Source: Spirochaetota bacterium
GTDB taxonomy: Bacteria > Spirochaetota > UBA4802 > UB4802
Length of the DNA stretch: 64,000 nucleotides
Assembly (NCBI GenBank): GCA_026414805.1
Contig: JAOAIH010000003.1
Location: 26,314-90,313, forward strand
Direction of reading: 5' to 3'
Shown: piece after piece, positions 8,386 through 37,885 of the stretch
Numbering within the stretch: the stretch's first letter is position 1
Layout of the letters: the number at the start of each line of letters is the position of its first letter
The notes under the pieces: model-generated
Seen by the model: only the letters and a program-made list of their open reading frames with translations
Database searches by the model: none
Told to the model about the DNA's origin: nothing
Made by a program: the position numbers and the translations under genes

Positions 8386-9216
8386 TTAGGAGTTTTTAAA
8401 TCCAGATATTTTATCACGAAGCCATTGCTGGCTTGTTAAATAATAAACTTTTGGATTTGGATATTCTTTGATTTTGATCCTTTTTTCATATTCAGACGGA
8501 TCTTTTGTTTTGAGTTCATCAATAGAATGCACAAGCCTAACAGCTCGGGGATCCTTCTGTACTTTTGGCTCATATACTGGCGAAGTAGGGTCATTAAGGT
8601 CGCCAAAAATTATAGCATTTGTTGGGCATGCACTGGCACATGCCGGGGTATATGTAACAGCATTGATATCAGTTATTCCTTTTGCAATAGCCTTATCACG
8701 TTCACGTTTCCAGATGTGTGAGCAAAATGTACATTTAACCATGGTACCGCGGGAAGCAATAGATACGTCAGGATTGAGGGATTCTTTAAAAGAACCTTCG
8801 TAGCGTGGTTTCCACCAGTGGAACACACGCGCTTCATACGGGCATGCTACCTGGCAGTACCTACAGCCTATGCATCGTGACCATATCTGGCTAACGACAC
8901 CATCATCGCCAACATCGGTAGCAACTACCGGGCATACAGTAACACATGGTGGATGCGGATGTTTTGGATCATTTCCTGAGCACTGCTGACACATCTTTGG
9001 TATATACGCAACTTTTACATCAGGGTACTGTGCCTTTGGATCCTTATCGTTTGTTACTTCTATCAGATCAAGAAAAGTGACTCTTTTTGGCACATCAGAA
9101 TCATCTTTAAAAATTGGAAGATTGTTTTCCTGAGAGCAGGCAATGTTACATGCTCCGCATCCAGTACATTTATCTAAATCTATAACCATTCCCCATCTTC
9201 TTGTCATTGTGGCCAT
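8386..9216 (-). CDS. 4Fe-4S dicluster protein, QrcC-like
   Basis: WGMVIDLDKCTGCGACNIAC, CQQC, CVTVCP, CIGCRYCQVACP, KCTFC, CASACP. Confidence 0.85.
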   Translation of the reverse strand: MATMTRRWGMVIDLDKCTGCGACNIACSQENNLPIFKDDSDVPKRVTFLDLIEVTNDKDPKAQYPDVKVAYIPKMCQQCSGNDPKHPHPPCVTVCPVVATDVGDDGVVSQIWSRCIGCRYCQVACPYEARVFHWWKPRYEGSFKESLNPDVSIASRGTMVKCTFCSHIWKRERDKAIAKGITDINAVTYTPACASACPTNAIIFGDLNDPTSPVYEPKVQKDPRAVRLVHSIDELKTKDPSEYEKRIKIKEYPNPKVYYLTSQQWLRDKISGFKNS

Positions 9217-9229
9217 AATTGTTCACCTC

Positions 9230-11197
9230 TTAACTCAGTTTTACTCGTGTTAACCACCAGTCAGAATAACCACTTAGTGGGTCTAATGCATCTGACATTA
9301 TGGGTTTTGGGTTAACACCTTTTTGGCTACCATATTCAGTCAGTTCTTCATGACCTAAACCAATAGGCACCGCAACCGTATCATAGGCAACCCGTTTTGT
9401 TAGATGTACTCTAACTGTTTCAAGTTCACCACGGGAAGATTCAATATCAATTTTGGAGCCTTCGGAAATCCCTTCTTTTGATGCTGTAACTGGATTCATC
9501 CATACCCAGCTTGTGTCGCCTTTTAAGATGGTATCTGGTAATCCTTTTAATACATAAGGAAGCGCCAGACCATTCCCTTCGCCAATTGTTGGTATTTCAA
9601 AAGGTACCATTGATATGGAGTAAGAACCCGAAGCTTGTAGTAATTTTTCCAATTCTTCAAGTTTTGCAGTTATGATATCTACAGGAATTTCCAAATTAGC
9701 AACATTTTTAGCCTGAAAGCTAACAACTTTGATAGTATCAAGATAACTATTCCATGGGAATTGAGCTGATATATTAGGTACATTTTTGGCAATTGCAAGT
9801 AGTGAATCTCCTGCATGTTTTGCTTCAAATTTGGCTGATACCGCTTGCCCATTGTATGGGATTTCAAGTGAAGTGAGTGTAGGAAAGACATAGTCAGCAT
9901 ATAATGCAGTATCATTAAGTAAAGAAGTGAACAACACTACAGTTGAAGCTTTTTTTAGTTTATCAGAAAGACGCTGCCCATAAACACTTGAATAAACCGG
10001 ATTGGCATTGTTTATCAGTACTATATCACAAGTCATATCGCTTGCAATATATTCATCAAGACCTTTGGTCTTTTTTGCAATAGCGGGTTTTGGAGGTGTT
10101 GTAAATGTAACAACCTTAACACTGTTGCCTAAACTACCAATCATACTGTTAATGGTTTGTATTATGGCAAATTCAGCAACTGAAGATGATACAACCTTTC
10201 CACCTTTACCTGCTACTGCAACCGGCCTGCGTGCATGTACTAAAGCTTTTGCAACAGACTCAATTGTTTCAAGTGATGCACCAGTAAGTTCGGATACCTT
10301 TTCGGGGGTGAATTTATTTATTAAAAGTTCAGTAAATCTTCCAAAATTTGTAGCCCCCGATCGCTTGCCATTCTTGAGCAAGTAATGTGCAACACCCATA
10401 GCAAAAATTGCTTCACTACCTGGTTTTACTGCAACCCACTGATCAGCCAATGAAGCAGTACGTGTTGCTATTGAATCAACCTGTATAAATTTAACATTCT
10501 TTTGTTTCCAGATATTTAATACACTATGCATTCTACCAGGATTACCCCAACCTTCAAAAAGGCGGGCACCAAAACTTACTACGCAATCAGCATTTTCAAA
10601 ATCATAGTCGATAGCTCCTTCAGTTTTCTGGGTTGCTACTGAACAGGCATTACTCAGAGCCCAATATCCAGCTTCCTGGTATACATGAGGACTTCCTGCA
10701 AATAGTACTATTCGCTCATTTAGCATTGATGTGGCGTCAGGGAATGCTGGGTTTATTGCAACAATCTGGTCTTGCTTCTTGTTATTAATGGCATCATTTA
10801 TTTTCTTTGAGATATCTGCTATAGCAGTTTCCCAGGAAACCGGCTCAAAATCAATTTTTCCTTTTTTACCGGTTCGTTTTAATGGAGTTTTAACACGTTC
10901 TGGATGGTAAAGAACCTGTAATAGAAGCTGTCCTGCAGCACACCCTTGATTAGATGTTTCAATTTTAACTGCCCTGTTTCCAATCATCCTGACATTTACA
11001 GTACATTTGTTGGGGCATTGGTCACAGATACTTGCTAAATATTTCTCTTCACCTTTAGGAGGGCGATACTGGTCTTGGGTCCATTCCACAAGCCATTGAA
11101 GGCCCATCCATGGACCAGGTGAAATAAGAGTACCAACACCAGTACCTACAACCGCGCCGCCTATCATTGTTAAAAAATCTTTTCGTTCGAGTTTCAT
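9230..11197 (-). CDS. Molybdopterin oxidoreductase family subunit, QrcB-like
   Basis: Tat-like ERKDFL, CDQCPNKC...C cluster motif, YHPERVKTPLKR, SWETA, molydop-binding C-terminal domain. Confidence 0.8.
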   Translation of the reverse strand: MKLERKDFLTMIGGAVVGTGVGTLISPGPWMGLQWLVEWTQDQYRPPKGEEKYLASICDQCPNKCTVNVRMIGNRAVKIETSNQGCAAGQLLLQVLYHPERVKTPLKRTGKKGKIDFEPVSWETAIADISKKINDAINNKKQDQIVAINPAFPDATSMLNERIVLFAGSPHVYQEAGYWALSNACSVATQKTEGAIDYDFENADCVVSFGARLFEGWGNPGRMHSVLNIWKQKNVKFIQVDSIATRTASLADQWVAVKPGSEAIFAMGVAHYLLKNGKRSGATNFGRFTELLINKFTPEKVSELTGASLETIESVAKALVHARRPVAVAGKGGKVVSSSVAEFAIIQTINSMIGSLGNSVKVVTFTTPPKPAIAKKTKGLDEYIASDMTCDIVLINNANPVYSSVYGQRLSDKLKKASTVVLFTSLLNDTALYADYVFPTLTSLEIPYNGQAVSAKFEAKHAGDSLLAIAKNVPNISAQFPWNSYLDTIKVVSFQAKNVANLEIPVDIITAKLEELEKLLQASGSYSISMVPFEIPTIGEGNGLALPYVLKGLPDTILKGDTSWVWMNPVTASKEGISEGSKIDIESSRGELETVRVHLTKRVAYDTVAVPIGLGHEELTEYGSQKGVNPKPIMSDALDPLSGYSDWWLTRVKLS

Positions 11198-28803: not shown

Positions 28804-30051
28804 TTACACAATCAAATTTTCCCCTACTAATTTTGTAAACGATTCAATTGTTACATTCATTCCATAACCTGTACATATTGTAGATAGTTGAAGATGACAA
28901 TTTTCACAGGCAGTAATAACCATTTCTGCTCCTGATTTTTCAATTTGCTCTTTCTTTGGTTTGCCACTTTTGATTCTGAATTCCTCATTATCAAGGGCAA
29001 CCAGTCCACCACCTCCTCCACAGCACCAATTATATTCGCGTGTTGGGTTCATCTCGCGGTAATCTTTTGCTAGCATCTTCACTATTTCACGAGGTTGATC
29101 GTATATTCCACCATTGCGTCCTAACTGACATGGATCATGCCATGTCACTGGTTTGCTGATTACATCTTCTTTTACTTTTATTTTGCCCTCTTTTATATAA
29201 CGGTAAATTACTTCCACAATGCTTGAAACTTTAAATGGCAATGGTCCCATTAAAAACTTAGGTATTCTGTATGCGGTGCCACATTCAACAATAACTATCT
29301 CCTTAACTCCTAATTCCTTTGCTTCATTGATAACTCTATTGGCAATAAAATTTGCTTTTTCACTGTCACCTACAAAAAAACCAAAGTTAACTGCTTCAAA
29401 GTAGCTTAATGTCCAGTCCTCTTTGGCAGCATTAAATATTGCAGCAGGATACACAATTGAGTGGGCACCTGAAAGCCCTACATAAAGAATATTTGCACCT
29501 TTCTTTTCCATTGGAATAAGGCCTTCGCTAATTGGTGCTTTAATCAGTTTTTGCACTTCTTTTTCAAGGTCTTTGATAACACTCTTGTAACCCTCCTTGA
29601 ACATATCAACGCTTTTACCTTTTTCTACAGCACCATCTGCAAGCATAACCAACTCTTCAGGTGCATTGCCATAGGCTACCAACAATTCTTTTGCAATTCC
29701 TAAGATATATGGCATGTCAATACCAAATGGGCAGAATACTGTACAGCGCCTGCAACCAGTACATGAAAATGCAGCTTCTTTAAGCTCTTCCATAAGGTTT
29801 TCATCAAATTCTTTTGCATCACCCCACCAGGGCAAAAATTTTCCAGTAGGTCTGAAGTATTTTCTGAATACCTTTCGTACTACTTCAGCCCTCCCTACAG
29901 GGGAATATTCTTTTTTAGGAATGCCCTGATATACGTGGCATGTATCATAACATAGGCCGCAGCGAGTGCAGAGATCTAAATAATACAACATGGGCCTGTT
30001 CAACTTCTTTTCAATAACCTGTGTAAGTTCTTGTACTTTTTCCTTATCCAT
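28804..30051 (-). CDS. HdrD/DsrK/HmcF-family Fe-S protein (two 4Fe-4S plus CCG domain)
   Basis: CTRCGLCYDTC, CTGCRRCTVFCP, ECGTAY, HDPCQLGR, CCGGGGG, TACENC. Confidence 0.85.
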   Translation of the reverse strand: MDKEKVQELTQVIEKKLNRPMLYYLDLCTRCGLCYDTCHVYQGIPKKEYSPVGRAEVVRKVFRKYFRPTGKFLPWWGDAKEFDENLMEELKEAAFSCTGCRRCTVFCPFGIDMPYILGIAKELLVAYGNAPEELVMLADGAVEKGKSVDMFKEGYKSVIKDLEKEVQKLIKAPISEGLIPMEKKGANILYVGLSGAHSIVYPAAIFNAAKEDWTLSYFEAVNFGFFVGDSEKANFIANRVINEAKELGVKEIVIVECGTAYRIPKFLMGPLPFKVSSIVEVIYRYIKEGKIKVKEDVISKPVTWHDPCQLGRNGGIYDQPREIVKMLAKDYREMNPTREYNWCCGGGGGLVALDNEEFRIKSGKPKKEQIEKSGAEMVITACENCHLQLSTICTGYGMNVTIESFTKLVGENLIV

Positions 30052-30053
30052 GG

Positions 30054-30776
30054 CTACTTCCTTTTACGATAATGTGCTAGAAATGTAAATACCGAATGTA
30101 CCATTTTGCTGAATGGAAACATCATGAGGAAAATATTTGCAAAAAGTACATGAAGAACCAAAATAGTAAAGTGCGATAGCTCTGTAATCTTGTACGATAG
30201 CTCCGGTTTCAGCATTATCATGCTTTGCAGCCATTGCCGGTAATCGTTCACATCAACCTTAAGTACTGCACCCCAATCGCTATATCGTTCAGCCAGATGA
30301 AGTATTGATCCAAACAATATACAGAAGAAAAGTACGAGCAGTATCACGAAATCTTCAGGAATAGAGATTTCACGATAAGGAGTTCCAAACCTCCTGAAAA
30401 GAAAATATAATGTTGTAATCATAAGAACTATGCCGACAACACCGCCCCCTAAAAATATTTTATGTGGAATTATTTGAATAAAGGCAAAGTCACCTATAAG
30501 TTCCAGATGCCCTAAAAATAATAACAAAAAGAAAAAATGAAATAGTATTATAACAAACCAAAATGATTTTTGCTTATTATAAGCGTTAGGAACTATGAGT
30601 GCTTCGTATAATAATCCAAATACCTTTGAACCTTTTTTAGGAAAAATAGCTCCTGTACCAGGGGGCGCAGGAGCTTTGAATATAACATACAGTTTATATA
30701 AAAGCCCTAAAATCAAGGTTGCAAAGGCAATATATACCATCGGCACTAAAATAAAATATGATATATAGCCCAGCAT
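30054..30776 (-). CDS. NarI/DsrM/HdrE-family diheme-b membrane subunit
   Basis: About 5 TM segments; conserved His in LFHFF..GHL and LHVLF..FPFSKMVH. Confidence 0.8.
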   Translation of the reverse strand: MLGYISYFILVPMVYIAFATLILGLLYKLYVIFKAPAPPGTGAIFPKKGSKVFGLLYEALIVPNAYNKQKSFWFVIILFHFFFLLLFLGHLELIGDFAFIQIIPHKIFLGGGVVGIVLMITTLYFLFRRFGTPYREISIPEDFVILLVLFFCILFGSILHLAERYSDWGAVLKVDVNDYRQWLQSMIMLKPELSYKITELSHFTILVLHVLFANIFLMMFPFSKMVHSVFTFLAHYRKRK

Positions 30777-30799
30777 TGTTTACCTCTTTTAGATGTTAT

Positions 30800-31039
30800 T
30801 TATTTAAGCTTTTTAATATAGAACTTTGTTACGTTGCCATCCTTAACTGTATCAAGAATTTCATTTCCACTTGTTTTGGCCCATGCAGGAAAGTCAGCCA
30901 GTGCTCCAGGGTCAGTAGTTTCTGCCATAAGAATTTGGCCTACCTGCATTTTTTTAATTTGCTGTGAAACTTTAACAACTGGTAAAGGGCATGCCAACCC
31001 TTTTAAATCCATTGTTACATCTGGTTTAATGTCGCTCAT
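30800..31039 (-). CDS. tusA: TusA-family sulfur carrier
   Basis: DLKGLACPLP (CPxP), TTDPGALADFPAWA. Confidence 0.9.
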   Translation of the reverse strand: MSDIKPDVTMDLKGLACPLPVVKVSQQIKKMQVGQILMAETTDPGALADFPAWAKTSGNEILDTVKDGNVTKFYIKKLK

Positions 31040-31144
31040 TGCTACACTCCTTAATTTAAAAAAATATTAATATTCCATTATCATATATTATTTTAAATTA
31101 TATATTGCACACGTGTGAAATACAAGAAGAAAACCACAAATAAA

Positions 31145-31702
31145 TTATATGAATAACTGAATCTTACTGTCTGAAGCTTCCTGTAAAAATGTTGCAACAC
31201 CAACTGATTTAATATCAGGATAGTCAATCATCTCCTCCATTTTAAGGCCCATCAAATCCATTGACATTTCGCATACATAAATTTTTACACCCAGTTCTGC
31301 AGCAAGTGCTATCATCCCATCAAGGTTCTGAATATTCTTTTTTTTCATTATATGTTTCATCATTGCTGTTCCCAAACCACCCATATTCATTTTTGAAAGT
31401 TTTACCCGTGAAGCACCTTTTGGGAGCATAAAGCTGAACATTTTGCCAAAGAAGTTTTTCCCTTTACCTTTTTTCTTCTTATCTCGTAATGCAGGTGTTG
31501 CCCAGAACGTGAAAAACATAACAGCTTCCATGCCCATTGCAACAGACCCTGTTGCAATAATAAATGCGGCTAAAAGTTTGTCTAAATCACCACTGAAAAC
31601 AACCATTGCAATCTTATCTTTTCGACCATCTTGAATCTCTTTGATCTGGTTCTGAATGGATTCTAGCATTTTAATAACAGGTTTACTTTTTACAATAACC
31701 AT
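31145..31702 (-). CDS. DsrE2-like (DsrE/DrsH family) sulfurtransferase
   Basis: VFSGDLDK, FFTFW, YVCEMSMDLMG, VGVATFL. Confidence 0.85.
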   Translation of the reverse strand: MVIVKSKPVIKMLESIQNQIKEIQDGRKDKIAMVVFSGDLDKLLAAFIIATGSVAMGMEAVMFFTFWATPALRDKKKKGKGKNFFGKMFSFMLPKGASRVKLSKMNMGGLGTAMMKHIMKKKNIQNLDGMIALAAELGVKIYVCEMSMDLMGLKMEEMIDYPDIKSVGVATFLQEASDSKIQLFI

Positions 31703-32040: not shown

Positions 32041-32070
32041 TTGACAGGCTATAATAGAAATAAATATAAT
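32041..32070 (+). promoter_or_regulatory. Sigma-70-type promoter for the psrABC operon
   Basis: TTGACA-N18-TATAAT, 60 nt upstream of the start codon. Confidence 0.65.
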
Positions 32071-32129: not shown

Positions 32130-34334
32130 ATGTTAGGAAAAATTAGTAGAAGAGAATTTATTAAGATAGCAGGGGCTGGGGTTGGCACTCTGGCGGTTGG
32201 CGGAGGCCTTTATAAATTAGTACAAGATGTAATTACGGATAAAAATGCCAATGGACCAGTAGTAAAAACACCTACATATTGTGAAATGTGTACCTACCAG
32301 TGCGCAGGATGGGTTTATAAAAAAGGTGACATGCCATGGAAAATAGTAGGCAATGAGCTTGATGAGCATTGTTATGGCAGAATGTGCACAAAAGGGTTAT
32401 CAGGTCTTGGTGCTTATTTAGATCCCAACAGGCTAAGAACACCTCTAATTAGGAAGAAAGAAAGAGGAAAACAGGTTTTCAAAGAAGCAACATGGGATGA
32501 AGCTTTTACCTATATTGCTGATAAAATGGAATACTTAAAGCAAAAGTACGGTCCTGAGAGCGTTGCATTGTTCAGTCATGGTTCTGGTGGTCATTGGTTT
32601 AAAATGCTTTTAAAAGCTTATGGTACAAATAGTTTTGCTGCTCCATCCTATGCCAACTGTCGTGGTCCTCGCGAAGAAGGATATGTGCTTACGTATGGTG
32701 AACCAATTGATACCCCTGAGCGCACAGATATGAAAAACACGAAATGCTTGGTTCTTATTGGTTCACACATTGGTGAAAATACTCATAGCCAGCAGGTCAT
32801 TGAATTTTCTCAGGCAGTGGCCAATGGAGCAAGTATCATTGTAGTTGATCCACGGTTTTCAGTTGCAGCTAGTAAGGCAAAATACTGGTTACCAATTAAA
32901 CCAGGTACTGATATTGCACTATTATTGGCGTGGATACATGTATTGATCTATGATGAATTATTTGATAAGCAATATGTATACAATAATACTTCTGGATTTG
33001 AGCAATTAAAGCAATCGGTAAAAAATACCACACCTGAATGGGCGTACCCTATTACATCAATTCAGCCTGAATTGATACGTGAAACAGCAAAAGAAATGGC
33101 AAAATACTCCCCTGCAACGATTGTTCATCCGGGAAGGCATAATGTATGGTATGGTGATGATACGCAAAGAGTAAGAGCAGGAGCAATATTGAATGCTCTA
33201 CTTGGTAGTTGGGGCAGGAAAGGCGGATTTTTCTATCCAGAAAAAGTAGATTTGCCTGAATATCCAACTCCTCCGTTCCCTCATCCTAAGAAATCATTTA
33301 AAGATGCTGTGAATAATAAATATGAACTGGCTAATTTGATTGTTTCATCAGGTATTTGTGATGCAACCATTCATAATGTGATGAATGGGAGCTCATTTTA
33401 TGAAGGTTGGTTCATATATGGTTCAAATCTATTGAAAGCCCTACCACAACAGGAAAAAACCATTAAAGCATTGCAGGATCTTGAATTGGTTGTAGTTGTG
33501 GATATTTTACCAACAGAAATAACTGGTTGGGCAGATGTTGTACTTCCTGATACTACGTATTTAGAGCGATATGATGACATAAGAACCTCACAGGGCAGAA
33601 CACCTCAAATAGCTTTGCGTATGCCTGCATTTAATCCAAGGTATAATTCAAAGCCAGCATGGTGGATTGCCAAAAACCTTGCCGAAAAGATGGGTCTGGG
33701 GGATTATTTCCCGTGGAAAACAATTGAAGAGTATCTTGATTATAAATTAAAAGCTGTTGGAACCTCACTTGATGAAATGAAACAGGTTGGCGTTAAAAAT
33801 TTCGATCGACAAACACCACTGTATATAACAGGTGCACAATTACCACGATTAGATACCCCCAGTGGTAAAATTGAATTGTATTCATCAACATTGGCAAGTT
33901 ATGGATTTGACCCAATTCCCGTTTATACAAAACATGAAGAGCCACCTAAAGGATATTACAGGTTACTGTATGGACGTTCTCCTTTCCACTCATTTGCACG
34001 GACTATAAATAATCCTGTTCTAACGCAATTGCAGGATGAAAATACAGTATGGGTACATCCTACTGTTGCTTTGGATTGGAATTTGAAGAATGATCAGTAT
34101 GTAAGATTGGAAAATCAGGATGGTGTTGTAAGTAATAAGATTAGGGTTAAGGTAACAGAAAGGATACGACCTGATTGTGTGTACATGGTTCATGGATTTG
34201 GGAGTAAGCAGAAGCAGTTGAAGCGTGCGTATAAAAAAGGTGCTGATGACCAGCAACTCATAACAAAAGTAAGTGTTGATCCTATTATGGGTGGTCAGGC
34301 AATGCATGGTAATTTTGTTACCTTTAAAGTTTAG
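32130..34334 (+). CDS. Polysulfide/thiosulfate reductase catalytic subunit (PsrA/PhsA-like)
   Basis: Tat motif SRREFIK, CEMCTYQC...C, probable Mo-ligand Cys in ANCRGPR, DLPxTxYLERYD-type MGD motif. Confidence 0.85.
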   Translation: MLGKISRREFIKIAGAGVGTLAVGGGLYKLVQDVITDKNANGPVVKTPTYCEMCTYQCAGWVYKKGDMPWKIVGNELDEHCYGRMCTKGLSGLGAYLDPNRLRTPLIRKKERGKQVFKEATWDEAFTYIADKMEYLKQKYGPESVALFSHGSGGHWFKMLLKAYGTNSFAAPSYANCRGPREEGYVLTYGEPIDTPERTDMKNTKCLVLIGSHIGENTHSQQVIEFSQAVANGASIIVVDPRFSVAASKAKYWLPIKPGTDIALLLAWIHVLIYDELFDKQYVYNNTSGFEQLKQSVKNTTPEWAYPITSIQPELIRETAKEMAKYSPATIVHPGRHNVWYGDDTQRVRAGAILNALLGSWGRKGGFFYPEKVDLPEYPTPPFPHPKKSFKDAVNNKYELANLIVSSGICDATIHNVMNGSSFYEGWFIYGSNLLKALPQQEKTIKALQDLELVVVVDILPTEITGWADVVLPDTTYLERYDDIRTSQGRTPQIALRMPAFNPRYNSKPAWWIAKNLAEKMGLGDYFPWKTIEEYLDYKLKAVGTSLDEMKQVGVKNFDRQTPLYITGAQLPRLDTPSGKIELYSSTLASYGFDPIPVYTKHEEPPKGYYRLLYGRSPFHSFARTINNPVLTQLQDENTVWVHPTVALDWNLKNDQYVRLENQDGVVSNKIRVKVTERIRPDCVYMVHGFGSKQKQLKRAYKKGADDQQLITKVSVDPIMGGQAMHGNFVTFKV

Positions 34335-34377: not shown

Positions 34378-34929
34378 ATGGCAAATAAGACTAAAAAGTA
34401 TGTAATGGTTATAGATACGCGTTTATGTGTTGGTTGTGGAGCATGTGTAGCAGCATGTAAAATGGAAAATCAGGTTCCTGAAGGCTTGCATAGGGATTGG
34501 ATTGTGGAACAGGTAACTGGAACTTATCCTAATCTTTCTATGGAAATTCGTTCAGAACGTTGTAATCACTGTTCCAATGCTCCATGTATTACTTCATGTC
34601 CAACAGGTGCAAGTCATCGTAAAGAAGGAACAAATATTGTTGTAGTAACAGCTAATAAATGCACTGGTTGCAAAGCATGTATGGCTTCATGCCCATACAA
34701 TGCTCGCTTTGTAATGCCAGATGGGTATGTAAGTAAATGTACTTTCTGTGAACATAGATTAGAAGAGGGTTTAGAACCCGCTTGTGCTTCAGCGTGTCCA
34801 ACACATGCCATTACGTTTGGCAATTTGAATGACACAATGAACAAGGTTTCAAAATTATTAAAAACCAGAAAGTATAAAACCATTATTCCCGAGGCCGGGA
34901 CTGATCCAAATATATTCTATTTATTATAA
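34378..34929 (+). CDS. PsrB/PhsB/NrfC-like 4Fe-4S subunit
   Basis: CVGCGACVAAC, CNHC..PCITSCP, CTGCKACMASCPY, KCTFC..PACASACP. Confidence 0.9.
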   Translation: MANKTKKYVMVIDTRLCVGCGACVAACKMENQVPEGLHRDWIVEQVTGTYPNLSMEIRSERCNHCSNAPCITSCPTGASHRKEGTNIVVVTANKCTGCKACMASCPYNARFVMPDGYVSKCTFCEHRLEEGLEPACASACPTHAITFGNLNDTMNKVSKLLKTRKYKTIIPEAGTDPNIFYLL

Positions 34930-34954: not shown

Positions 34955-35947
34955 ATGAGGTTGCTTATGAATGAAATAGTACTAACAACAAAAAAAGCGA
35001 TTGAGGCAGGCCATTCAATGAGTATTTGGAAATGGGAAGTGCCAATGTATCTTTTCCTTGGTGGCCTCACAGCAGGAATTCTCCTTATTGCTGCTTTTAT
35101 GATTTTGAAAGATAAACCAAAGAAATATCCATTTTCAACTAATAAATTAATTTTGCTGGCACCAATTATTTTAAGTGTTGGTATGTTATTTCTTTTCTTA
35201 GATCTTGACCATAAGTTGTATGTATGGCGATTTTATACTGCATTCCGAATCACATCGGTTATGTCATGGGGTGCATGGATATTGATGCTTGTATATCCTT
35301 TAAGTATTGGGTTAATATTGGCAACTGTCAAGAAAGGTTATGCTGAGTATTACGATAGATTTAATAAATGGCTGAAGAATTCCAAATACAATAAACTATC
35401 GCCAATTATTGATAAATTAATTGTCCTTGCTGAAAAGTACAAAAAGCCTCTGGCTATAGCAACAATACCAGTAGGTATTTTACTTGGTATATATACAGGA
35501 ATTTTATTAAGTGCGTTTTCAGCACGGCCATTCTGGAATTCAGAACTTCTTGGATTTTTATTTTTAGTTTCGGGATTATCTACTGGAGCTGCACTGGTTA
35601 TTTTACTAGCAAAAGATCATGAGGAAAGGAAATTCATCACAAAACTTGATATTGGGTTTATTGCAGTAGAGGCAATATTACTTGTACTGTATATTTTTGG
35701 TATGCTGTCTTCGTCTTTACAGCATATTGATGCAATAAAGTTAATTTTGGGTGGCGAATTGACGCCTATATTTTGGTCTTTTGTGTTTGTTATAGGAATG
35801 CTGATTCCTTTAACACTTGAGCTTCTTGAACTGAAAGGTAAGCCTATACCTTCATCCATTGCTGCATCATTGGTGCTTGCTGGTGGGTTGGCTTTACGAT
35901 TTATTTTTGTTGCAGCTGGCCAGATTACAAACTGGCTACCATATTAA
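34955..35947 (+). CDS. PsrC/NrfD membrane anchor
   Basis: WEVPMYLFLGGL, LDL, SVMSWGAW, YTGILL..RPFWN, SGLSTG. Confidence 0.9.
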   Translation: MRLLMNEIVLTTKKAIEAGHSMSIWKWEVPMYLFLGGLTAGILLIAAFMILKDKPKKYPFSTNKLILLAPIILSVGMLFLFLDLDHKLYVWRFYTAFRITSVMSWGAWILMLVYPLSIGLILATVKKGYAEYYDRFNKWLKNSKYNKLSPIIDKLIVLAEKYKKPLAIATIPVGILLGIYTGILLSAFSARPFWNSELLGFLFLVSGLSTGAALVILLAKDHEERKFITKLDIGFIAVEAILLVLYIFGMLSSSLQHIDAIKLILGGELTPIFWSFVFVIGMLIPLTLELLELKGKPIPSSIAASLVLAGGLALRFIFVAAGQITNWLPY

Positions 35948-35978: not shown

Positions 35979-36491
35979 ATGGAAAAGAAACCTTATGCAT
36001 CACCGTACATCGCTGGAGTAGGGTTGGGTTTAGTGTTATTAGCAGCCTTTTTCTTTACAGGCCATGGCCTAGGAGCTTCAGGTGCAATTACTCGGACTAT
36101 AGTTGCTGTTGAAAAAGTTATTTCCCAGGAACATGTTGATGCTAATCCATATCATGCTGAGTATGGTGGTGGCAATACAAATCCGCTCAATAATTGGCTG
36201 GTATTTCAGTTATTGGGTGTAATAGTTGGTGGTATGCTTTCTGGAATTCTTGCAGGAAGATTTAGAAAAGAAATTAACCATGGCCCGCAAATTACGCCTA
36301 AACAGAGATGGGTATATGCAGTAATTGGTGGCGCTCTTTTTGGTTTTGGTGCAAAATTTGCACGAGGATGTACCAGTGGCTTTATTTTAACTGGTGGGGC
36401 TGGTATGGCGCTTGGCGCATGGGTAGGCATGATGGTGATGTTTGCAGTTGCATATATTACTGCATATTTTGTTAGAAAACTTTGGATATAA
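35979..36491 (+). CDS. YeeE/YedE-family sulfur transporter half
   Basis: PYIAGVGLG, GLGASG, FARGCTSG; start moved to the ATG at 35979 after AAGGGGG. Confidence 0.8.
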   Translation: MEKKPYASPYIAGVGLGLVLLAAFFFTGHGLGASGAITRTIVAVEKVISQEHVDANPYHAEYGGGNTNPLNNWLVFQLLGVIVGGMLSGILAGRFRKEINHGPQITPKQRWVYAVIGGALFGFGAKFARGCTSGFILTGGAGMALGAWVGMMVMFAVAYITAYFVRKLWI

Positions 36492-36502: not shown

Positions 36503-37108
36503 ATGTTTGCACCATTATCAGTATATTTTAACTGGAGCAATGGTATAGATTTACTAGTATCTTTTATCATCGGTATTGGGTTTGGTTTTGCATTGGAACA
36601 GGGTGGATTTGGTAATTCAAGGAAGCTGGCAATGCAGTTTTATTTTAGGGATTTGACAGTATTAAAAGTCATGTTTTCTGCTATGGTTACAGCAATGGCA
36701 GGAATAGTGTTTTTTACTGCATTTGGTTGGCTTGATACCAATAGTATGTTCGTTCCTCAAACATATATCTGGGCCCAGATATTAGGCTGTGCCATAATGG
36801 GTGTGGGTTTTGCTATTGGTGGCTATTGCCCGGGAACTAGTTTTGTTGGTCTTTCCACTCTTAAGATAGATGCGCTTTTCTTTATTATTGGTCTTTTTAT
36901 AGGTGTGTTTATTTTTGGTGAACTATTCCCCATTTTAGAAGAATTGTACCATGGCAAATATAGTGGGAATATGGGAAGAATAACTCTGTATGAATTTTTA
37001 GGTGTACGGCCTGGTGTTATTGCCGCAATAATTTTAATCATGGCTATTGGCGCCTTTTGGGGGGCCGAAAAGCTTGAAGAAAAATTTGGTAACCAGATTA
37101 TACAGTAA
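36503..37108 (+). CDS. YeeE/YedE-family sulfur transporter half
   Basis: GFGFALEQGGF, FRDLTVLKVMF, GGYCPGT; start moved to the ATG at 36503 after GAGGTG. Confidence 0.85.
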   Translation: MFAPLSVYFNWSNGIDLLVSFIIGIGFGFALEQGGFGNSRKLAMQFYFRDLTVLKVMFSAMVTAMAGIVFFTAFGWLDTNSMFVPQTYIWAQILGCAIMGVGFAIGGYCPGTSFVGLSTLKIDALFFIIGLFIGVFIFGELFPILEELYHGKYSGNMGRITLYEFLGVRPGVIAAIILIMAIGAFWGAEKLEEKFGNQIIQ

Positions 37109-37120
37109 GGAGTGTACTTT

Positions 37121-37747
37121 ATGAAACTGGAAAACAAGCAAATAGCTGTCTATACGGCTATTATTTTGGCGATAATTATGCTTTTTTTACCTGGCCAGGA
37201 CCCTACCAAGGTACATATTGATTTACAGGCTATGGCCCAGATGATAGGGAATAAGGAAGACCATGTTACGCCAGGTGAATTATCACAGTGGATAATAGCA
37301 GGCAATAATGACTTTCAACTGATAGATATACGAACTAAAGAAGAATATGAAAAAGGGCATATTGAAGGAGCGATAAACATCCCGCTTCAAAATCTATTAA
37401 ATAGAAATGTAATAATGGATGAGCTCAATCATGATAAAAAGATTGTGCTCTATTCCAATGGAAGCTCACATGCATCTCAGGCATGGGTAGTATTAAAGGG
37501 GTTAGGCTTTGACTGTTATATCCTTGAAGGCGGATATAATGGCTGGAATGCTGTTGTACTTAATCCTACAGCTGGGTCAAATGCAACTGATGATGAAGTG
37601 TTGCTGTATGCTAAACAGAAAGCTGTTGCAGACTATTTTGGCGGAAGCAGTATTCAGCAGCAAAAACCAGCTGCAAGCGCAGCACCTGCTCCTGTAGTAC
37701 CACAAAAACCTCAAGGTGGCAAAAAGAAGAAAATGCAGGGATGTTAA
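37121..37747 (+). CDS. Membrane-anchored rhodanese-like protein with a C-terminal Cys tail
   Basis: N-terminal TM, LIDIR..EY..GHIEGAINIP, LEGGYNGW; active-site loop reads YSNGSS; ends KKKKMQGC. Confidence 0.8.
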   Translation: MKLENKQIAVYTAIILAIIMLFLPGQDPTKVHIDLQAMAQMIGNKEDHVTPGELSQWIIAGNNDFQLIDIRTKEEYEKGHIEGAINIPLQNLLNRNVIMDELNHDKKIVLYSNGSSHASQAWVVLKGLGFDCYILEGGYNGWNAVVLNPTAGSNATDDEVLLYAKQKAVADYFGGSSIQQQKPAASAAPAPVVPQKPQGGKKKKMQGC

Positions 37748-37776
37748 TAAACTAAATACTATAGTGAATGTATTAT

Positions 37777-37803
37777 AAAAGGGCTGCATCAATCAGCCCT
37801 TTT
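37777..37803 (+). terminator. Intrinsic terminator of the psr operon
   Basis: AAAAGGGCTG-CATCAAT-CAGCCCTTTT followed by further T residues. Confidence 0.8.
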
Positions 37804-37885
37804 GTTTTTATAATGTTGTTGCATAATTACAATTATTGTTATATACCATTGTAAAGATCAAAAATTAGATAAGAGTTGTTAGTAT

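Follow-up and report, generated by a model that had tools for sequence, protein, structure and literature searches.

A membrane-anchored rhodanese-like protein with a conserved C-terminal cysteine, a candidate sulfur-carrying arm of split YeeE channels

The last gene of a six-gene psr operon in a 64,000-nucleotide stretch of a Spirochaetota genome (the window) encodes RhdGC, a membrane-anchored protein whose rhodanese domain has lost its catalytic cysteine and whose sole conserved cysteine lies at the very end of a tail predicted to be disordered. Since a two-piece sulfur channel always accompanies RhdGC, the protein is probably an arm, so far undescribed, that hands sulfur to the channel and to an enzyme. 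We consider it fairly probable, though well short of certain, that RhdGC is a tethered persulfide-carrying arm serving both the YeeE1E2 channel and PsrA. Comparative sequence evidence supports the sulfur-carrier interpretation of the terminal cysteine advanced in the original prediction; persulfide formation, contact of the arm with the YeeE cysteines and PsrA, and the direction in which sulfur flows we infer from anatomy, conservation and linkage.

The elements of the gene and its product are as follows.

37121 to 37747, plus strand: RhdGC open reading frame, 208 aa; membrane-anchored Cys-less rhodanese with a C-terminal Cys arm
37133 to 37183, plus strand: N-terminal signal-anchor helix, residues 5–21 (helix in the AlphaFold2 model; flank charges)
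37223 to 37561, plus strand: rhodanese-fold domain, residues 35–147 (pLDDT about 90; Foldseek and HMMER matches)
37445 to 37477, plus strand: degenerate loop VLYSNGSSHAS, residues 109–119, with Ser112 at the catalytic Cys position
37589 to 37636, plus strand: family-specific helix DDEvLxYxxxxAVAxYFGG, residues 157–172 (AlphaFold2 helix; conservation)
37649 to 37741, plus strand: disordered Ala/Pro/Gln linker and polybasic KKKK, residues 177–207 (pLDDT below 50)
37742 to 37744, plus strand: terminal Cys208 codon TGT, followed by TAA TAA, the first stop at 37745–37747

The start was placed at ATG 37121, which has AGGAG 8 nt upstream, and not at GTG 37112, because all homologs begin MKLENKQ; the GTG is unused among them and was rejected. 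Residues 50–144 match the Pfam Rhodanese profile PF00581 with an E-value of 6.3e-23 and 81.6 bits (cut-off 22.2), and a Foldseek search with the domain returned rhodaneses at probability 1.00. The relatives retrieved by Foldseek and HMMER are single-domain rhodaneses, including the Cys-less Alr3790 and Wolinella Sud (1qxn). In both sequence and fold the domain is thus a rhodanese homology domain, and the features of an active rhodanese (a Cys at the start of the loop, the pattern C-x4-5-[RK/ST] and basic loop residues) were not found in it: the original prediction of a serine in place of the catalytic Cys holds, with Ser112 encoded by TCC (37454–37456) within the rhodanese domain, and the loop SNGSSHA contains no Arg or Lys and so is without the basic residues of active rhodaneses. 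All NCBIfam sulfurtransferase models scored far below their cut-offs against RhdGC, and no SoxY, SoxZ or DsrC match was obtained with Pfam and NCBIfam.

The C-terminal sequence reads ...QQQKPAASAAPAPVVPQKPQGGKKKKMQGC, the last residues before the stop being KKKKMQGC, and the tail preceding TAA TAA reads ...PQKPQGGKKKKMQGC. In an AlphaFold2 model built from 35 sequences the 32 residues of this tail (177–208) have pLDDT values below 50 and are predicted to be disordered, and the model gives the tail no docked position. The Ala/Pro/Gln-rich linker ending in Cys that had been described from the reading frame is therefore confirmed, as is its flexibility by prediction, with TGT followed directly by TAA. 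Selenocysteine or read-through at the terminal position was considered and rejected, given the TGT codon and the tandem TAA, and the C-terminus is GC(x) with an ordinary stop in 18/18 related loci.

Homologs were collected by a word-indexed search, which gave 32 relatives, and by a profile search of 1.84 billion representatives, which gave 226 proteins at E <= 1e-30; the search profile contained the GC columns, which slightly biases the ranking toward tail-bearing matches. Very long multi-rhodanese proteins that rank first in this profile search (P0033 and others) have an unrelated architecture, lack the tail and were set aside. Among 140 single-domain family representatives, which are phylogenetically clustered so that counts in this family sample are not independent events, 129 (92%) have a Cys within the last three residues, where about 3% would be expected from Cys frequency. 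At the catalytic position 110 of the representatives have Ser, 19 Gly and 4 Ala, and a Cys stands there in 3. Both G207 and C208 reach at least 90% conservation across the 32 aligned relatives, with the preceding Lys run largely kept, and both are invariant in the 35-sequence alignment A3. The linker contains no conserved column in the alignments other than the Lys run and G207, and its length ranges from 29 to 99 residues (median 62) in 246 tail-bearing members. The tip of these members is EGC (119), ESC (42), GGC (31) or a close variant, and the (E/G)-G-C tip is followed by 0–2 further residues. Selection thus appears to act on the tip only, G207 and C208 being invariant and the linker free. 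Outside the tail, D157, D158 and E159 are invariant and Y163, F173 and G174 at least 90% conserved in the close-subgroup alignment A2; Y163 also reaches at least 90% in alignments A1 and A3.

Ser or Gly in the loop and the (E/G)GC tip co-occur family-wide, the co-conservation that the original prediction had proposed to look for, and the dead rhodanese loop with a terminal Cys is a family trait. The internal Cys in GFDCY, which had been named as the residue that might instead prove reactive, was rejected: it is unconserved even in homologs of 50–57% identity. The terminal Cys is the sole Cys in 77 of the 246 members, so the conserved Cys is not that of GFDCY.

Two kinds of membrane attachment were found. 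A lipoprotein signal with a lipobox is present at the N-terminus of 113/246 members, and such a signal implies export. In the 122 members with a transmembrane (TM-type) anchor the mean charge is +1.7 on the N-terminal flank and -0.3 on the C-terminal flank, and the N-flank is the more positive in 99/122, so these members are probably oriented N-in, C-out. The RhdGC domain and tail are accordingly predicted to face the periplasm; anchor types and flank-charge bias agree on an outside location with a membrane tether, in line with the topology expected of a membrane-tethered arm. A cytoplasmic orientation was rejected on the flank charges and the lipoprotein signals.

The charge of the tail is coupled to the anchor: it is polybasic (KKKKxGC) in 82/98 TM-type members and acidic in 98/113 lipoprotein-type members, where it often ends ...LIVEEGC. 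Such LIVEEGC-type tails are acidic or hydrophobic in the family-wide sample (P0001–P0300, phylogenetically clustered), and most lipoprotein members have a Gly directly after the lipobox Cys. Because the charge of the tail changes sign between the two anchor types, one electrostatic mode of docking is unlikely to serve the whole family. A polybasic stretch outside the membrane is also unusual and counts against the carrier-arm reading.

In the window rhdGC is the last of six genes in the order psrA-psrB-psrC(nrfD)-yeeE1-yeeE2-rhdGC, and it is the one copy of the family in this genome. A search for RNA-seq runs covering the locus returned none. The operon comprises the following features upstream and downstream of rhdGC.

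32041 to 32070, plus strand: sigma-70-type promoter TTGACA-18-TATAAT, 12/12 consensus, 60 nt upstream of psrA
32130 to 34334, plus strand: PsrA-type molybdopterin catalytic subunit with a twin-arginine SRREFIK export signal (Pfam)
34378 to 34929, plus strand: PsrB-type four-cluster Fe-S subunit (Pfam Fer4_11, E 2.8e-24)
34955 to 35947, plus strand: PsrC/NrfD-type quinol-interacting membrane subunit (Pfam NrfD, E 1.6e-47)
35979 to 36491, plus strand: YeeE1, half-size YeeE/PmpA-like protein of the C-terminal-half type, pore Cys in FARGCTSG (Sulf_transp 177–307)
36503 to 37108, plus strand: YeeE2, half-size YeeE/PmpB-like protein of the N-terminal-half type, pore Cys in GGYCPGTS (Sulf_transp 4–150)
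37775 to 37805, plus strand: intrinsic terminator closing the operon, a 12-pair stem followed by a T-run

PsrA carries the Pfam Molybdopterin, Molydop_binding and Fe4S4 domains, with a weak TAT_signal match. It aligns to Thermus thermophilus PsrA (PDB 2vpw–2vpz) at E 1.3e-202, and its best NCBIfam match is PhsA, below the cut-off of that model. A divergent operon encoding DsrE2, TusA, a NarI/DsrM-like and an HdrD/DsrK-like protein adjoins the cassette (28804 to 31702, minus strand). Such DsrE2-TusA-DsrMK-like genes lie beside the cassette in none of 41 other loci, so that the adjacency appears specific to this genome, and a conserved link between the two operons was rejected.

The related loci examined number 41 and are spread over at least six phyla; a split YeeE/PmpAB pair stands beside rhdGC in all of them. 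PsrABC is present in most of them, in two gene orders, and rhdGC closes a psrABC operon in about 35/41. The six genes occur in the order of the window in Spirochaetota, Desulfobacterota, Omnitrophota, Aminicenantes, Bacteroidota and other MAGs. In Bacteroidota the family was matched in 39 of 251 sampled genomes (about 15%); 16 of the 20 regions fetched have the same six genes in the same order, and another, a 3.4-kb contig, contains yeeE1-yeeE2-rhdGC and nothing else. Gammaproteobacteria of the lipoprotein subgroup have the same six genes in the order yeeE1-yeeE2-psrA-psrB-psrC-rhdGC. In four of the 41 loci (L020, L063, L065 and L066), all with ample flanks, Psr is absent and yeeE1-yeeE2-rhdGC is kept. 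Each of these four instead has an added two-domain rhodanese of 295–349 aa.

L063, 9746 to 10702, minus strand: two-domain rhodanese
L066, 9728 to 10618, minus strand: two-domain rhodanese
L065, 9768 to 10655, minus strand: two-domain rhodanese
L020, 11138 to 12187, minus strand: two-domain rhodanese

In L063, L065 and L066 this tandem rhodanese is encoded immediately upstream of yeeE1-yeeE2-rhdGC; in L020 it is located downstream, on the opposite strand. Translation of those from L063 and L066 showed a signal peptide and a catalytic Cys loop of canonical form. The original prediction had placed the arm between PsrA and the YeeE pair; the second partner is found in every one of the 41 loci, and the first is inconstant. 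With four loci lacking Psr and NrfD replaced in another, it is the split YeeE pair, not PsrA, that stays constant, and the sulfur enzyme standing beside the YeeE pair and RhdGC is exchangeable.

The locus in which NrfD is replaced, a distant variant (L003, 6038 to 7384; RhdGC 32% identical), has no NrfD and has a cytochrome b (Ni_hydr_CYTB) fused to YeeE1, a fusion that physically ties the channel to the quinol-oxidising part; a MamS/MamX-like gene and tatA follow its rhodanese. A MerR-family regulator gene is found directly after the cassette in two loci (L001 and L002, each at 8766 to 9233), and a MerR gene has been reported beside the same cluster in Ca. Thermonerobacter (PMC6338057).

YeeE1 and YeeE2 are two half-size Sulf_transp proteins with one conserved pore Cys each, as in a split YeeE. 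The YeeE1 Cys (FARGCTSG) aligns to C293 of Spirochaeta thermophila YeeE (StYeeE), which lies in a positively charged periplasmic indentation at the thiosulfate site, C91 being central; the pore cysteines of StYeeE are disulfide-bonded in crystals (PMC7449682). The assignment of YeeE2 to the N-terminal half rests on Pfam profile coordinates, a phmmer search of YeeE2 against the PDB having given nothing useful, and YeeE2 has an additional C-terminal TM helix. PmpA and PmpB correspond to YeeE halves (PMC11582611), and by this correspondence the Cys in GGYCPGTS of YeeE2 would correspond to the central C91. The split pair YedE1E2 imports zero-valent sulfur without exporting it and depends on the lone Cys in each half (PMC10812762).

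In six related cassettes the codon for the YeeE2 pore Cys is an in-frame TGA, beyond which the frame runs on to the normal C-terminus.

L006, 9729 to 9731: in-frame TGA in YeeE2
L007, 2877 to 2879: in-frame TGA in YeeE2
L008, 9699 to 9701: in-frame TGA in YeeE2
L009, 9729 to 9731: in-frame TGA in YeeE2
L010, 9729 to 9731: in-frame TGA in YeeE2
L017, 9709 to 9711: in-frame TGA in YeeE2

We take this TGA to be a probable selenocysteine (Sec) codon, giving a Cys/Sec pair at a YUPGTS site. A selB gene scoring above its curated cut-off was found in four of the six genomes, the other two being incomplete assemblies. RNAalifold gave no convincing consensus SECIS for the region 3' of the TGA; when the six Sec forms are folded singly, at least five show a 6–7 bp hairpin about 13 nt after it, but the registers are shifted and the z-scores non-significant, which makes this hairpin suggestive only as a Sec-related signal. 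Sec-containing YeeE-family proteins with a GUxSG motif have been described (PMC13188914), and the YUPGTS site lies in the other YeeE half from that motif. Since a Cys/Sec pair marks a redox or nucleophilic residue, it fits a covalent sulfur relay through the pore, and the in-frame TGA at the pore Cys, if read as Sec, argues for covalent chemistry in the channel.

In the mechanism we propose, RhdGC would be tethered to the inner membrane and face the periplasm, its chemistry relocated to the one Cys at the extreme C-terminus; the rhodanese fold is probably a docking or spacer module, because the catalytic Cys and the anion-binding loop are both lost. The terminal thiolate would be loaded with sulfane sulfur, in persulfide or short-polysulfide form, either directly from polysulfide or S8 or from a periplasmic enzyme, and the disordered tail, 30–60 residues long and with a possible reach of about 10 nm or more, would let the arm swing between two co-encoded partners. 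At the split YeeE1/YeeE2 pair sulfur would pass covalently from the arm to the outer Cys of YeeE1 (GCTSG), to the Cys or Sec of YeeE2 and into the cytoplasm, where in this organism the TusA and DsrE2 encoded next door may receive it. At the active-site funnel of the Tat-exported PsrA the arm-bound sulfur would be reduced to sulfide or, with PsrA running in reverse, the arm would be loaded from sulfide. Import is the favoured direction through the channel, because the Psr-less loci have an exported active rhodanese as a likely loader and YedE1E2 works as an importer only. Two further points count against the carrier-arm reading: the TusA and DsrE2 neighbours appear unconserved in other loci, and we know of no established pathway that explains why a reductase and an importer would share one carrier.

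A bolder version of the carrier-arm reading, which we regard as possible but rather doubtful, holds that sulfur crosses the inner membrane wholly protein-bound on single thiols, from the arm Cys-COOH through YeeE1 and the YeeE2 Cys or Sec to TusA/DsrE2; that the Psr/Phs-type molybdoenzymes of the cassette act on the arm persulfide and not on free polysulfide or thiosulfate; and that RhdGC adds a third type of swinging-arm carrier to SoxY and DsrC. On this bolder version an alpha-carboxylate next to a persulfide could mimic thiosulfate at the positive outer mouth of the channel, and the need for a terminal Cys would thereby be explained.

Other roles for the arm have to be weighed against these. 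RhdGC might be a Sud-like helper of PsrA alone, the arm presenting polysulfide sulfur to the molybdenum site and the YeeE pair being an independent operon-mate, as could be expected from the position of rhdGC at the end of the psrABC operon here and in about 35/41 loci and from the detectable relationship of its domain to Sud. However, the four amply flanked loci without PsrABC retain YeeE1-YeeE2-RhdGC, the YeeE pair is never missing, and all six genes stay together despite shuffled order, and we consider this role improbable. Slightly less probable again is that the terminal Cys is a structural or regulatory thiol, acting as a reversible disulfide plug or gate of the YeeE pore or Psr funnel, as a redox sensor or as a metal ligand. 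Mixed disulfides are within reach of a lone Cys at the end of a chain, in StYeeE crystals the pore cysteines are joined by a disulfide (PMC7449682), and the pseudo-rhodanese domain has no obvious catalytic role; but a long sequence-free linker with a conserved tip is the pattern of the SoxY and DsrC carrier arms, in the Psr-less loci the arm is accompanied by an active exported sulfurtransferase that would be a natural loader, and for a metal ligand there is no second Cys or His.

It is very unlikely, in our judgement, that the cassette is a selenium module in which the arm carries selenide or selenopersulfide, the YeeE pair is a YedE-like selenium transporter and the molybdenum enzyme reduces a selenium oxyanion or Se(0). 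YedE-family members have been linked to selenium use (PMC5322559), the NCBIfam models TIGR04112 and NF033796 give weak matches, and several cassettes have Sec in YeeE2. Yet PsrA is very close to the T. thermophilus polysulfide reductase (E 1.3e-202), the YedE selenium-model matches are far below their cut-offs, in some cassette genomes selB was not found above its cut-off, and Sec marks a redox-active site, not a selenium substrate. We give equally little credence to a cytoplasmic domain and tail in the TM-anchored polybasic forms, which would then play the part of YeeD/TsuB at the channel's inner mouth. The KKKK run would fit the positive-inside rule, and in E. coli and S. thermophila YeeE requires YeeD, a cytoplasmic partner with a Cys, as cited in PMC11582611; against this, the N-flank is the more positive in 99/122 TM-type members, nearly half of the family are exported lipoproteins, and both subgroups have the same partners.

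On the evidence above the RhdGC family appears to be a widespread, uncharacterised variant among sulfur-carrier proteins. A tethered carrier arm would bear on the route by which zero-valent sulfur, insoluble or bound to protein, gets to polysulfide and thiosulfate reductases, on what feeds YeeE/PmpAB sulfur channels from outside, and on the role of a sulfurtransferase called unclear in a multi-phylum gene cluster. If it is correct, the annotation 'rhodanese-related sulfurtransferases' would be misleading, because the rhodanese site is dead. The Cys-tipped arm is also a concrete and mutable hypothesis, which one C-to-S change should break, and cultured carriers of the cluster exist, such as Caldithrix abyssi (PMC9324843).

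The gene cluster itself has been described, and placed in sulfur metabolism, as phsABC/psrABC-pmpAB(DUF395 x2)-sulfurtransferase in Ca. Thermonerobacter (PMC6338057) and in Ca. Electryonea, Ca. Lernaella and Caldithrix abyssi (PMC9324843); its gene set and order are the same as those of the operon in the window. In the latter paper the sulfurtransferase is said to have an unclear function, and a PmpA/B-sulfurtransferase fusion is mentioned. Neither paper remarks on the tail, its terminal Cys or the loss of the catalytic Cys, and full-text literature searches returned no description of a Cys-less or terminal-Cys rhodanese associated with Psr. The YeeE1/YeeE2 halves of the window resemble the YeeE-YeeD (TsuA-TsuB) and YedE1E2/PmpAB systems, being of the PmpA and PmpB type with one conserved Cys each. 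YeeE depends on a small Cys-bearing partner protein (PMC11582611). In the YeeE system this partner, YeeD, is cytoplasmic and has a TusA fold, whereas RhdGC has a rhodanese fold, is predicted to face outward and carries its terminal Cys on a tail; no characterised periplasmic partner of a YeeE-family channel was found in a literature search.

Among structures, the best single-domain PDB sequence match is to the Alr3790 type (3ilm, 2kl3), which has a rhodanese fold without the loop Cys. These are structural-genomics proteins of unknown function and, unlike RhdGC, show neither a membrane anchor nor a conserved terminal Cys arm in the alignment. Of characterised systems the nearest are Sud and the SoxY and DsrC arms. 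Sud of Wolinella succinogenes (1qxn; E about 1e-5) is a single periplasmic rhodanese domain that carries polysulfide sulfur for a PsrABC-type partner, and RhdGC shares with it the periplasmic location, as predicted, and the PsrABC link, seen in the operon in most loci. Sud works as a soluble protein and has its sulfur bound to the active-site-loop Cys; RhdGC differs on both counts, being membrane-tethered with a Ser in the loop and with its sole conserved Cys as the last residue of a tail predicted to be disordered. In SoxY (GGCGG-COOH) and in DsrC/TusE (penultimate Cys), a Gly-preceded, sulfur-carrying Cys sits on a flexible C-terminal arm that enters the active sites of partners. RhdGC has neither the immunoglobulin-like fold of SoxY with SoxZ nor the DsrC/TusE fold; its rhodanese fold is unrelated, its linker far longer and its anchor a membrane helix or lipid, and its partners are a YeeE-type channel and Psr, in place of Sox enzymes or DsrAB/DsrMK. 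What it has in common with these carriers is the arm, with a Gly-preceded conserved Cys at or near the C-terminus of a tail predicted to be disordered.
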